Made by a program: the position numbers and the translations under genes. This document shows, piece after piece, positions 1 to 2,092 of a DNA stretch of 2,424 nucleotides; position 1 is the first letter of the stretch; each line of letters opens with the position of its first letter. Under the pieces are notes generated by a model. That model saw only the letters and a program-made list of their open reading frames with translations, did no database searches and was not told where the DNA came from. This DNA comes from a virus (lineage: Duplodnaviria > Heunggongvirae > Uroviricota > Caudoviricetes): IMG/VR virus record IMGVR_UViG_2695420458_000022. One strand, given 5' to 3'.

Positions 1-192
1 ATGCACAAAGCATCTCCTGTTGAGTTAAGAACGAGTATCGAGATGGCACATAGCCTTGCTCAAATTGGAATCAGGTTTGTGCCAATACCAGTAGAAACAG
101 ACGAAGAATTTCATACGTTAGCCACATCCCTTTCACAAAAACTGGAAATGATGGTGGCGAAAGCAGAAGCAGATGAGAGAGACCAGGTATGA
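1..192 (+). CDS. Hypothetical small acidic phage protein (63 aa); may be complete or 5'-truncated at the window edge
   Basis: Open frame from position 1 (ATG) to TGA at 190-192. Same strand and tight spacing as downstream genes; its stop overlaps an ATG at 189-191. No family recognised by eye. The window starts exactly on this ATG, so upstream context is not visible. Confidence 0.5.
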   Translation: MHKASPVELRTSIEMAHSLAQIGIRFVPIPVETDEEFHTLATSLSQKLEMMVAKAEADERDQV

Positions 193-272
193 CAACCACT
201 GAATGCATTTTTCTGGCAGCGGGCTTCATATTCTGTGTGCTTATGCTTGCCGACATGGGGCTTGTTCAATGA
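189..272 (+). CDS. Putative 27-aa hydrophobic mini-protein (MTTTECIFLAAGFIFCVLMLADMGLVQ), single predicted transmembrane helix; not in the supplied ORF track
   Basis: ATG 189-191 overlaps the upstream stop TGA 190-192, and its own stop TGA 270-272 overlaps ATG 269-271 of the next gene (double ATGA coupling). Purine-rich GAGAGAGA/AGGT lies just upstream. About 20 consecutive hydrophobic residues. Competes with the alternative 203 start of the next gene. Confidence 0.3.
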   Translation: MTTTECIFLAAGFIFCVLMLADMGLVQ

Positions 273-484
273 CACCTCAGCAAGAAAACGCCCTTCGCAG
301 CATTGCCCGTCAGGCTAATTCTGAAATCAAAAAAGCCAGACAGCAGTTTCCGGATAAAAACGTCGATGACATTTGCCGTAGCGTACTGAAGAAGCACCGC
401 GAAACGGTAACGCTGATGGGATTCACACCGACTCATTTAAGCCTGGCGATCGGCATGTTAAACGGCGTCTTTAAGGAACGGTGA
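269..484 (+). CDS. Hypothetical phage protein, about 72 aa, predicted helical and basic (MTPQQENALRSIARQANSEIKKARQQ...). Alternative start ATG 203 would give the 93-aa form with a Cys/His-rich N-terminus (CAYACRHGAC)
   Basis: Open frame ending TGA 482-484. ATG 269 overlaps the stop of the mini-ORF in an ATGA arrangement. No strong Shine-Dalgarno before either 203 or 269, so start choice is uncertain. No family recognised by eye. Confidence 0.6.
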   Translation: MTPQQENALRSIARQANSEIKKARQQFPDKNVDDICRSVLKKHRETVTLMGFTPTHLSLAIGMLNGVFKER

Positions 485-506
485 GCATGAAAAACAAAAT
501 CATCAT

Positions 507-527
507 GGAGCTACAGGCTCCTTTTTT
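507..527 (+). terminator. Weak terminator-like or attenuator-like hairpin: GGAGC-tacag-GCTCC followed by TTTTTT
   Basis: 5-bp GC-rich stem (507-511 / 517-521), 5-nt loop, then a 6-T run (522-527) in the 98-bp gap between the stop at 484 and the start at 583. The stem is short, and the region is also covered by a possible 29-aa ORF (487-576). Confidence 0.3.
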
Positions 528-582
528 ATTATTCGCATTCACCCTCAAGCGTATTAACCAACAATTCAGGGATTAATGAAAG

Positions 583-804
583 ATGGCAGACATCATTGAT
601 TCAGCATCAGAAATTGAAGAATTACAGCGCAACACAGCAATAAAAATGCGCCGCCTGGACCACCAGGCTATATCTGCCACTCATTGTTGTGAGTGTGGCG
701 ATCCCATAGATGAGCGAAGACGCCTGGCCGTTCAGGGTTGTCGGACTTGTGCAAGTTGCCAGGAAGTTCTGGAGCTTATCAGTAAACAGAGAGGTTCGAA
801 GTGA
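583..804 (+). CDS. TraR/DksA-family C4-type zinc-finger protein (73 aa), phage-type RNA-polymerase secondary-channel regulator
   Basis: Translation contains C35-x2-C38-x17-C56-x2-C59, the exact Cx2Cx17Cx2C spacing of TraR/DksA C4 zinc fingers (nt 685-759), preceded by an acidic and amphipathic N-terminal helix region. Length matches the 73-aa TraR-like proteins of F plasmid and lambdoid phages. Stop TGA 802-804 overlaps the next start. Confidence 0.9.
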   Translation: MADIIDSASEIEELQRNTAIKMRRLDHQAISATHCCECGDPIDERRRLAVQGCRTCASCQEVLELISKQRGSK

Positions 805-1172
805 GCGAAATTAACTCTCAGGCACTGCGTGAAGCGGCAGAGCAGGCAATGCATGACAACTGGGGATTTGACGCGGACCTTTTCCATGAGCTGGTAACAC
901 CATCGATTGTGCTGGCACTGCTGGATGAACGGGAAAGAAACCAGCAATACATCAAACGCCGCGACAAGGAGAACGAGGATATTGCACTAACGGTAGGGAG
1001 GCTGCGCGTTGAGCTGGAAGGCAAACACAGGCGCATTACTGAGCTGACAATGTGGATTAAGCGACTGAGTTCCTCTCTCAAAAACGCAAAACCAGACAGC
1101 AAGTTGCCGGATGACGCAATGATCTGGCTAAATAATGAAGGGCTTACCAGTATAGAGGATATTTTACGATGA
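801..1172 (+). CDS. Coiled-coil phage protein (123 aa), possibly ead/Ea22-like family (assignment tentative)
   Basis: GTG start at 801 overlaps the TraR-like stop (GTGA), with Shine-Dalgarno GAGG at 791-794, 6 nt upstream. An in-frame ATG at 849 is an alternative start. Central heptad-like charged segment (ERERNQQYIKRRDKENEDIALTVGRLRVELEGKHRRITEL). Stop TGA 1170-1172 overlaps the next start. The antisense ORF 818-1102 is Ser-rich low complexity, typical of the opposite strand of a coiled-coil gene. Confidence 0.75.
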   Translation: MSEINSQALREAAEQAMHDNWGFDADLFHELVTPSIVLALLDERERNQQYIKRRDKENEDIALTVGRLRVELEGKHRRITELTMWIKRLSSSLKNAKPDSKLPDDAMIWLNNEGLTSIEDILR

Positions 1173-1816
1173 GCACTTTTACCATGGAATGGCTACAAAA
1201 TACGATTACCAGTATTGAGTCAGCACGAGATGAAATGCCATTCGGACTCGATAACGATCAAGCACACATGCTTACAGCATTTAAAATCGCTCTCGCCTCA
1301 CTGGAACGCGAGCGGGTTCGCCACGAGCATGCCAAATGGTCTGACTCCACATTTGGCTGCGTTGGCCCCATTGGTCCACTGAAACACCTCTCAAAAGAGG
1401 CTCTGGAAGCCGCAGCCGAACCTGACGATCTCAGCGAGTGGGCTGATATGCAGTTCCTGTTGTGGGATGCACAGCGCCGTGCCGGTATCAGTGATGCTGA
1501 AATTACCGCTGCTATGGAAAATAAATTGAAGATCAACATGGAGCGTCAGTGGCCTGAACCAAAAGATGGTGAGCCTCGTTTGCACATTAAAGAACCCGGC
1601 AACTCTCCGGTAACTCCGGATGGTTGGATAAGCTGTAGTGAGCTAATGCCAGATGATGGTCAGCACGTAATTATTTTATGTGATGGCGCATTCGTTCTTT
1701 ATGCGCAATATCGAGACGGAGAGTTTTTCGATATTGTCCGCAATGGTGATGAATTTTTCGAAACACAGAGTCGCAATGTAACCGACTGGATGCAACTACC
1801 AGAACCTCCTCTTTGA
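1169..1816 (+). CDS. Two-domain phage protein (215 aa): N-terminal MazG-like nucleotide pyrophosphohydrolase (DUF550-type, dATP/dGTP diphosphohydrolase-like) fused to C-terminal DUF551
   Basis: ATG 1169 overlaps the upstream stop (ATGA); Shine-Dalgarno AGAGGA at 1154-1159. N-terminal half has a MazG-like acidic helix signature (KEALEAAAEPDDLSEWADMQFLLWDAQRRAGISDAEITAAMENKLKINMERQW, about nt 1400-1552). C-terminal about 60 aa (WISCSELMPDDGQHVIILCDGAFVLYAQYRDGEFFDIVRNGDEFFETQSRNVTDWMQLPEPP, nt 1625-1813) matches the DUF551 pattern with the terminal W-M-x-LPEPP motif. A Pro-rich linker separates the domains. Ends with tandem stops TGA-TAG. Confidence 0.88.
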   Translation: MSTFTMEWLQNTITSIESARDEMPFGLDNDQAHMLTAFKIALASLERERVRHEHAKWSDSTFGCVGPIGPLKHLSKEALEAAAEPDDLSEWADMQFLLWDAQRRAGISDAEITAAMENKLKINMERQWPEPKDGEPRLHIKEPGNSPVTPDGWISCSELMPDDGQHVIILCDGAFVLYAQYRDGEFFDIVRNGDEFFETQSRNVTDWMQLPEPPL

Positions 1817-1912: not shown

Positions 1913-2092
1913 ATGTCTTGTCCAAAATGCGGTTCTGGAAATATTGCAAAAGAAAAAACAATGCGTGGATGGTCTGATGATTATGTGTGCTGCGATTGCG
2001 GATACAACGACTCTAAAGACGTATTTGGAGAGCGTGGTAAAAACGATTTTGTCAAAATTAATAAAGAACGCGAAGGCAACGAAAAAAGCTAA
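1913..2092 (+). CDS. Small Cys4 zinc-ribbon protein (59 aa) with a Lys/Glu-rich C-terminal tail; function unknown
   Basis: Strong Shine-Dalgarno GGAGG at 1901-1905, 7 nt before ATG 1913. Translation MSCPKCGSG...VCCDCGYN gives C3-x2-C6 ... C26-x2-C29, a classic zinc ribbon. The ORF track's 1880 start adds 11 residues with no ribosome-binding site. The overlapping alternative-frame ORF 1872-2111 lacks both RBS and motifs. Separated from the upstream operon by a 96-bp AT-rich spacer. Confidence 0.75.
   Translation: MSCPKCGSGNIAKEKTMRGWSDDYVCCDCGYNDSKDVFGERGKNDFVKINKEREGNEKS

Follow-up and report, generated by a model that had tools for sequence, protein, structure and literature searches.

F-plasmid TraR (PDB 5W1S, 6N57, 6N58) is built of 73 residues arranged as an N-terminal helix, a globule, and a C-terminal helix (PMC6970531), with a DxxDxA motif in residues 3-8, whose tip reaches the active-site region of RNA polymerase, and a CxxC-x17-CxxC motif. 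Of its residues, E46, R49, and K50 contact the rim helices and β'Si3 of RNA polymerase (RNAP), and K50 contributes to activation via β'Si3, not to inhibition (PMC6970531); the roles of R48 and R49 have also been described (PMC9239242). The allostery seen by cryo-EM comprises a rotation of the β lobe-Si1, a kink of the bridge helix, and a repositioning of β'Si3 (PMC6970531). DksA of E. coli occupies the same site on RNAP, with a functionally equivalent DxxDxA tip (PMC9239242), and its zinc finger and C-terminal helix form a homologous module, but it is a protein of 151 residues in which the tip is borne by a two-helix coiled coil, and it depends on ppGpp for full activity. The DksA/TraR zinc-finger superfamily also includes YbiI (2KGO) and phage P2 Orf82.

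The nearest characterized relative of the protein described here is Orf73 of bacteriophage lambda (= Orf2310), studied by Gopalkrishnan et al. 2022 (PMC9239242). It competes with DksA for E. coli RNAP (half-maximal competition at 0.65-1 µM) and inhibits rrnB P1 without ppGpp, with an IC50 of ~50 nM; rpsT P2 is also inhibited without ppGpp. Most of its activity is lost in D3N or D6N, D3A/D6A also impairs it, and, when induced, the protein complements a deletion of dksA (PMC9239242). When its expression is driven by pL, pre-rRNA falls to 29% and rpsT mRNA to 45%; host growth is slowed, and, after induction with mitomycin C, phage yield is 3-4-fold higher with orf73 (PMC9239242). TraR activates thrABC, argI, and rpoH P3, whereas lambda Orf73 does so weakly if at all, a defect that the authors tentatively tie to its two extra cysteines (PMC9239242); the presence of ExxRL in lambda Orf73 had been noted earlier (PMC8614690). 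P2 Orf82 binds RNAP and inhibits rrnB P1 as well, with an IC50 of 250 nM, about 5-fold weaker (PMC9239242); it is without the A8 of the tip motif, which the Orf73-type protein has.

The window, by which we mean the whole 2,424-nucleotide stretch of DNA under analysis, contains a gene of this type. The ORF at 583-804 runs from an ATG to a TGA (the coordinates include the stop codon) and encodes a 73-residue protein, MADIIDSASEIEELQRNTAIKMRRLDHQAISATHCCECGDPIDERRRLAVQGCRTCASCQEVLELISKQRGSK, which, in a direct and gapless comparison, is identical to lambda Orf73 at 70 of 73 positions; the substitutions are N26D, V49A, and D62V. The two genes differ by 8 nucleotides, 5 of them synonymous third-position changes, a bias that is as expected for a coding region. 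In a tblastn search of phage records, the protein matches phage 434 at 97.3%, lambda at 95.9% (30395-30613 of the record, minus strand), and many Stx-converting phages at 93-96%; indexed and exhaustive searches return 179 (E≤1e-3) and 541 full-length homologues, respectively. An entry identical over its full length exists in RefSeq (WP_000763360.1, 'TraR/DksA family transcriptional regulator'), and E. coli strain Z1323HEC0477, which encodes it, carries the 222-nt gene with 100% identity at the DNA level. Among 5426 complete E. coli genomes, 3316 (61%) carry the gene, in as many as 6 copies each, so that any effect of its leaky expression on the host would be common. The ORF is thus, with little room for doubt, an orthologue of bacteriophage lambda orf73 in a lambdoid phage or prophage from E. 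coli or one of its close relatives, and its product is a TraR-family member of the lambda Orf73 orthologous group. For this gene family, a structure-function map and the effects on host transcription and phage yield have been published, and the exact protein is in RefSeq; in this sense the gene is already known.

Profile searches place the protein in the same family. It scores 35 bits against Pfam PF01258 (zf-dskA_traR, the dksA/traR C4 zinc finger; gathering score 24.9), matches PHROG 54 ('DksA-like zinc-finger protein') over residues 1-71 with E 6.5e-25, and covers all of NCBIfam TIGR02419 (C4_traR_proteo, the TraR family of phages and conjugal plasmids; model positions 1-64 of 64) with E 4.1e-15, missing the curated cut-off of this model by 3.6 bits (56.1 vs 59.7). 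Despite the near miss, the identical protein is named TraR/DksA family by PGAP. Searched against the PDB with phmmer as a single sequence, it finds TraR over residues 1-64 (E 2e-4); with a profile of 50 sequences, TraR is reached over residues 1-69 with E 3.3e-10. By these scores the family match lies far beyond chance. Three narrower assignments were considered and set aside. The equivalog model of F-plasmid TraR itself (NF010268, cut-off 108 bits) gives a score of 24.8 bits, and the neighbouring genes here are those of phage recombination and the exo-xis block. The model for the 88-residue YbiI (NF008243, cut-off 96 bits) gives 37.4 bits, and the alignment is confined to the zinc-finger region. 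DksA proper does not fit a protein of 73 residues with one predicted N-terminal helix, and the 50-sequence profile aligns to it only in residues 34-70 (DksA 113-149, zinc finger and C-terminal helix; E 0.04). PADLOC defence-system models give no match for the 73-residue protein and mere noise for its neighbours.

The sequence-only reading had recognized a phage-encoded regulator of the TraR type from the length of 73 residues and the Cx2Cx17Cx2C spacing, both of which, like its coordinates, prove exact by the ORF list and a regular expression. This expression (C..C.{17}C..C) spans residues 35-59, with C35, C38, C56, and C59 as zinc ligands; each is found in 49-50 of 50 full-length homologues and corresponds to TraR C37, C40, C58, and C61. 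Two further cysteines, C36 and C53, which occupy the places of TraR E38 and V55, bring the total to six; C53, C56, and C59 form a C-x2-C-x2-C string. Since C53 is kept in 49 of the 50 homologues and in 54 of 110 representatives of the wider TraR-like family, and C36 is rare (18 of 50), these counts suggest selection on C53 rather than on the extra cysteines as a pair. Neither C36 and C53 nor the N-terminal M-A-D3-I-I-D6-S-A8 had been mentioned in the first reading, which had proposed a check for the acidic tip residues and named their absence as a refutation; the outcome favours the reading, as D3, D6, and A8 are present and align to TraR D3, D6, and A8 both in phmmer and in the profile. Among the 50 homologues they are conserved in 49, 50, and 50 sequences, and the DxxDxA motif is intact in 84 of the 110 wider-family representatives. 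The coordinates of these and the neighbouring features are collected in Table 1.

Table 1. Features of the orf73 region, in coordinates of the window.
Feature	Position	Strand	Basis
31-codon ORF, GTG start, ending 6 nt before the orf73 ATG	481..576	+	ORF list
Terminator-like hairpin GGAGCC-uac-GGCUCC (507-521) followed by U6	507..530	+	Consensus scan; lies inside the 31-codon ORF
orf73 orthologue, TraR-family zinc-finger protein	583..804	+	ORF list, identity to lambda Orf73, PF01258, PHROG 54
DxxDxA tip motif, codons 3-8 (D-I-I-D-S-A)	589..606	+	Residue-for-residue alignment to TraR D3-E-A-D6-E-A8
C4 zinc-binding motif C35xxC38-x17-C56xxC59, codons 35-59, with C36 and C53	685..759	+	Regular expression, TraR alignment
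Codons 44-48 (E-R-R-R-L), equivalent to TraR E46-A-R48-R49-K50	712..726	+	Profile alignment
C-terminal helix, codons 57-73 (helix predicted for 57-69), with E64	751..801	+	AlphaFold2 secondary structure
ead/Ea22-like ORF, 123 aa, GTG start	801..1172	+	PF13935 (E 2.4e-21), order of lambda ea22
dATP/dGTP pyrophosphohydrolase (DUF550) and DUF551 ORF, 215 aa	1169..1816	+	PF04447 (E 4.5e-42), PF04448 (E 1.5e-17)

The arginine pair shared with TraR is conserved as R46 (50 of 50 homologues; TraR R48) and R47 (48 of 50; TraR R49). The lysine of the TraR ExxRK motif (K50) is absent: its place is taken by L48 (ExxRL), as in lambda Orf73, at a position where the 110 wider-family representatives have L, A, K, Q, E, or R. 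The glutamate of the C-terminal helix, E64, is invariant in the 50 homologues and has as its aligned counterparts TraR E66 and the Glu of 'LAEIRE' in DksA. The three differences from lambda fall at variable alignment columns and touch no residue of known importance: at position 26, 33 of the 50 homologues have N and 16 have D; at position 49, 44 have A, the V of lambda being the rare state; and at position 62, which aligns to TraR Y64, 44 have D or E and 6 have V or I, while the residues seen there in the 110 wider-family representatives are D, L, E, I, V, and A. D62V does remove an acidic residue of the C-terminal helix that 44 of the 50 close homologues have, and we count this against the preferred explanation.

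Compared with TraR as a whole, from which its identity is only ~30%, the protein shares the length, the N-terminal helix, the two motifs, the RR pair, and the glutamate of the C-terminal helix, and the mechanism is considered common to both (PMC9239242); it differs in that TraR is encoded in the tra operon and the orf73 orthologue in a phage early operon. Towards lambda Orf73, the likeness extends to the length, the six cysteines, DxxDxA, ExxRL, and E64.

An AlphaFold2 model built on the alignment of 50 sequences (mean pLDDT 77.8, with moderate confidence at the N-terminal tip, 57 for residues 1-10) has helices at residues 6-23, 44-49, and 57-69 and no coiled coil, which matches the N-helix/globule/C-helix layout of TraR. 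In Foldseek, its best match in the PDB is TraR in complex with RNAP (6n57_M; E 6.9e-4, probability 1.0, TM 0.54), followed by DksA (7khi_M), TraR (5w1s), and YbiI (2kgo); among DksA structures, the fold corresponds to 7khi_M, 5vsw_M, and 1tjl. Relative to bound TraR, the free model has a large global rmsd (~11.6 Å) owing to a different orientation of its helices; a similar effect of the helix angle has been reported for models of lambda Orf73 (PMC8614690). The protein is thus predicted to be TraR-like, with a single N-terminal helix, and not DksA-like, with a coiled coil.

The surroundings of the gene are those of lambda. At 96.7% identity, window positions 1-1019 are colinear with lambda 31196-30177 and represent the lambda exo-xis block orf63-orf61-orf73-ea22; the annotation accordingly marks the window as an exo-xis segment of a lambdoid prophage. 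In the lambda pL transcript the order is gam-bet-exo-orf60a-orf63-orf61-orf73-ea22-...-xis-int, and in the prophage of strain Z1323HEC0477, which adjoins ybhC, it is gam-bet-exo-DUF1317(orf60a)-DUF1382(orf63)-hypothetical(orf61 type)-TraR/DksA-ea22-like-DUF550/551-Eag-...-excisionase-integrase. Homology to lambda stops at position 1019, inside the ea22-like ORF, so that ea22 is replaced beyond residue ~73. Where lambda has ea8.5 and orf55, the ea22 homologue is followed here by the DUF550/DUF551 gene and an Eag-like gene; the excisionase is of a different type from that of lambda, and the orf61-type ORF is present in a long, un-truncated form.

The genes are tightly packed. Upstream, the ATG of a hydrophobic 27-codon ORF (189-272) overlaps the orf63 stop codon; the stop of this small ORF overlaps the start (ATG, 269) of the 71-residue orf61-type ORF, whose own stop overlaps the GTG of the 31-codon ORF (GTGA). 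Downstream, the TGA of orf73 (802-804) overlaps the GTG (801) of the ea22-like ORF in a GTGA at 801-804, and the stop of the latter (1170-1172) overlaps the ATG (1169) of the DUF550/DUF551 ORF in an ATGA at 1169-1172, so that three cistrons are joined by 4-nt overlaps, with orf73 as the first. The GTGA at the end of orf73, the upstream orf63 and orf61, the downstream ea22, the hairpin, and the small ORF in front of orf73, likewise of 31 codons, are all found in lambda. From its reported length, we infer that this ORF corresponds to orf2313, a 31-residue peptide detected by ribosome profiling in the lambda exo-xis block (PMC8614690). PHROGs have no family for the small and opposite-strand ORFs at 735-947 (minus), 576-680 (minus), 481-573 (plus), and 189-269 (plus).

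The claim that orf73 heads a coupled operon holds for the coupling, orf73 being the first of the three overlapping cistrons, and fails for transcription. A scan of the whole window for sigma-70 consensus sites finds none on the plus strand and one on the minus strand, against 3.7 expected, and the 31-codon ORF ends just 6 nt before the orf73 start. A promoter of its own in front of orf73 was discarded for want of a plus-strand site in the window, and the idea of an operon head was dropped with it. By its synteny, orf73 appears to lie mid-way in the early-left operon from pL, and early transcription from pL would follow from the gene order together with the absence of a plus-strand promoter-like site in the window, outside which pL lies. 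For lambda, early expression of orf73 by ribosome profiling is among the results cited in PMC9239242. The hairpin upstream of the gene folds with -8.6 kcal/mol (z -2.76) and is identical in lambda; an N-antiterminated pL transcript would read through it. A literature search returned no name for this hairpin. We considered whether it might be the lambda terminator tL3, which we take to lie just downstream of exo in the pKD46 fragment and hence upstream of the window, and we rejected it on these grounds. An Rfam scan of the window (E≤1) gives a single sub-threshold match, to STnc130 on the minus strand near 2147-2274 (E 0.99, 24.3 vs 55 bits), which we treat as chance.

Taken together with the experiments on lambda Orf73 (PMC9239242), the sequence, profile, fold, and synteny bear out the reading of a phage-encoded RNAP regulator of the TraR type that acts early; a reader without tools can thus recognize such a regulator by its length, cysteine spacing, and context. 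In vitro transcription from rrnB P1 and growth inhibition on overexpression, which that reading had named as experiments, have already turned out as predicted for lambda Orf73, a protein of 96% identity (PMC9239242). For the protein encoded at 583-804, the identity, the motifs, the predicted fold, and the synteny are established directly; the biochemistry is carried over from lambda Orf73 on the assumption that the three substitutions are without effect, a transfer in which we place high confidence.

By analogy with the TraR structures and the biochemistry of lambda Orf73, the protein would bind host RNAP directly, and not DNA. Its N-terminal helix would enter the secondary channel of RNAP, bringing D3 and D6 close to the active-site region; R46 and R47 would sit on the rim helices and β'Si3, and the C-terminal helix would contact the β lobe-Si1. 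Open complexes would thereby be destabilized allosterically at kinetically sensitive promoters of rRNA and ribosomal-protein genes, in a mimicry of DksA plus ppGpp that should not require ppGpp; the protein, which has half the size of DksA and one helix, is expected to be ppGpp-independent as are TraR and Orf73. The host would then grow more slowly and invest less in new ribosomes, and the phage yield would rise. Overall, the protein is very probably a lambda Orf73 orthologue in this functional sense as well, binding RNAP, inhibiting rRNA promoters independently of ppGpp, and raising phage yield. Judging from ExxRL (vs ExxRK in TraR) and the extra cysteines, it is probably, like lambda Orf73, a good inhibitor and a poor activator.

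Several other accounts of the gene have to be weighed against this one. That the ORF arose by chance and is no gene might be argued from the lambda records NC_001416 and J02459, which have no CDS feature at orf73, and from the Shine-Dalgarno match of orf73, which by our own reading is weak; other lambda records, however, label the product as a DksA/TraR or TraR/YbiI family protein, PGAP annotates it, there are hundreds of full-length homologues, the N-terminus MADIID is conserved, and the differences from lambda are skewed to synonymous sites. With the expression of lambda orf73 in ribosome profiling, to which passages in PMC9239242 and PMC8614690 refer, the conservation pattern already refutes this account, whose probability is vanishingly small. 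It is extremely unlikely, too, that the protein has the DksA/TraR-type zinc finger but does not act on RNAP, as may be the case for YbiI and for inactive DksA homologues. In the single-sequence search the top PDB match is indeed YbiI (2kgo, E 1e-4), marginally ahead of TraR, and inactivity has been noted for some DksA homologues without key features (PMC9239242); but the match to YbiI covers the zinc finger only (residues 29-65) and falls far below the YbiI cut-off given above, whereas TraR aligns from residue 1 and includes DxxDxA. The features whose absence explains inactivity, DxxDxA and the C-terminal helix, are all present, and the 96%-identical lambda Orf73 is active on RNAP.

The remaining two accounts accept the gene and its family, and concern what the activity is for. 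One has the same RNAP mechanism serve a pro-lysogenic or host-sparing role, in which host growth and stress-related transcription are damped and survival and lysogenization are selected over a larger burst. Work of the Wegrzyn laboratory, in the passages of PMC8614690 that treat the orf73 deletion in lambda and Stx phages, describes lowered post-infection survival and lysogenization efficiency, and an earlier report of a reduced yield attributed to Orf73 is acknowledged in PMC9239242. Against this, both non-polar D3A/D6A mutants and an in-frame deletion bring the yield down 3-4-fold after mitomycin C, and the authors suggest that the way in which orf73 had been inactivated, or differences in the method of induction, explain the earlier results (PMC9239242). 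The physiological role is disputed between the laboratories (PMC8614690, PMC9239242), and sequence by itself does not discriminate between a pro-lytic and a pro-lysogenic role; we regard the latter as doubtful. The other account sees the main function in the 'bin' activity of the exo-xis block, which blocks initiation of host chromosome replication, for example through lower dnaA transcription or altered supercoiling of the origin. The genes orf73, ea22, ea8.5, and orf55 have been implicated in this inhibition, as cited in PMC9239242, and at high concentrations lambda Orf73 inhibits dnaA P2 and P1 in vitro, with IC50 values of ~420 nM and ~1.7 µM (PMC9239242). From a single-copy prophage, however, Orf73 causes a weak drop of dnaA mRNA, if any, whereas rRNA promoters are strongly inhibited at ~50 nM (PMC9239242); further, ea8.5 and orf55 are absent from the window and ea22 is replaced beyond residue ~73, so the four-gene 'bin' set is not conserved. 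We consider this account distinctly unlikely, and retain inhibition of rRNA promoters in favour of phage yield as the preferred function.

Within the preferred reading, two departures from it are conceivable from the conservation counts, both very unlikely: that C53 acts as a redox-sensitive or alternative zinc ligand, or that V62 restores activation of the TraR type. A hydrophobic residue at position 62, in the helix that contacts βSi1 and where TraR has a tyrosine, could have the latter effect. C53, as an alternative or redox-sensitive ligand, could switch the globular domain, and hence its contact to β'Si3. Oxidative stress is a known inducer of Stx prophages; if the idea of a redox-active C53 were true, the activity of Orf73 would be tied to it.

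The stretch leading into orf73, the gene of the 73-aa TraR-like protein, is tightly packed with small reading frames (see table). The last of these, the 31-codon ORF, could translationally couple orf73 to the ORFs upstream. It has a counterpart in lambda, also of 31 codons (MNMKSKIIRELQAPFLLFAFTLKRINQQFRD), and is probably the same as orf2313, a 31-aa peptide found in the exo-xis block by ribosome profiling (PMC8614690). Within it, just upstream of orf73, lies a terminator-like hairpin whose lambda copy is identical; a search of the accessible literature found no name for it. Further upstream, the unannotated 27-codon ORF is joined by ATGA overlaps on both sides, to orf63 before it and to the orf61-type ORF after it; lambda carries the identical peptide, and a comparison with PHROG returned no matching family.

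Features of the small-ORF stretch before orf73 and of the region downstream of it
Feature	Position	Strand	Details
Hydrophobic 27-codon ORF, unannotated	189-272	+	MTTTECIFLAAGFIFCVLMLADMGLVQ
orf61-type ORF, long form	269-484	+	71 aa if started at ATG 269; 93 aa if started at ATG 203
31-codon ORF	481-576	+	GTG start on orf61 stop; ends 6 nt before orf73 ATG
Terminator-like hairpin	507-530	+	GGAGCC/GGCUCC with U6 tail; -8.6 kcal/mol, z -2.76
dATP/dGTP pyrophosphohydrolase (DUF550) + DUF551 fusion ORF	1169-1816	+	follows ea22-like ORF
Zinc-ribbon ORF, 59 aa (CPKC...CCDC)	1913-2092	+	PHROG 2945, E 5e-30
Strong GC-rich hairpin with T-run	2156-2185	both	AAGCCGCC-TGAT-GGCGGTTT; between Eag-like and excisionase-like ORFs
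Last ORF, 66 aa	2224-2424	+	PHROG 66 'excisionase and transcriptional regulator', E 2.7e-8

The orf61-type ORF, which PHROG 303 matches end to end, is present here in a longer form than in lambda, whose Orf61 has already been remarked to 'appear truncated' (PMC8614690). The alignment identifies a single extra A as the cause: an A-run at about 323-329 has six A in the window versus seven in reference lambda, and the resulting frameshift cuts lambda orf61 to 61 aa, the remainder still being encoded in the downstream frame.

In the Orf73 protein itself, C53 and C36, which discussions of lambda Orf73 single out as 'extra' cysteines, differ widely in their conservation. C53 (window 739-741) is kept in 49 of the 50 full-length homologues of the clade and in 54 of 110 wider TraR-like representatives, and is Val in TraR; C36 (688-690) is found in only 18 of the 50 clade members and is rare outside the clade. 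In the two canonical lambda records, NC_001416 and J02459, the orf73 frame is intact (2084-2305 of the extracted locus), yet carries no CDS feature; newer lambda records do annotate it. A further record of 48,361 bp, MW057783.1, is named 'Campylobacter phage CJLB-4' and gives Campylobacter jejuni as its host, but it matches this part of lambda at 96.6%, and both its coordinates and its annotation are lambda-like; it appears to be lambda DNA filed under a Campylobacter phage name.

Downstream, homology to lambda ea22 ends at window position 1019, at a mosaic joint (1019-1172 and 1169-1816, plus strand); because of this break, the ea22-like ORF encodes just 123 aa, compared to 182 aa for lambda ea22. 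The DUF550-DUF551 fusion ORF that follows is absent from lambda. The zinc-ribbon ORF is called 'Eag protein' in E. coli annotation, and its weak, sub-threshold Pfam and NCBIfam matches are to Lar restriction-alleviation proteins and to HVO_2753-type zinc ribbons. A short stretch of lambda homology returns at 2119-2192 (96% identity), just upstream of xis; the hairpin within it looks like an intrinsic terminator. The last ORF matches HTH_17 only weakly. In the closest E. coli prophages, similarity to the window is lost at about 2182-2192 and a lambda-type excisionase is found instead; the integration module has thus been swapped.
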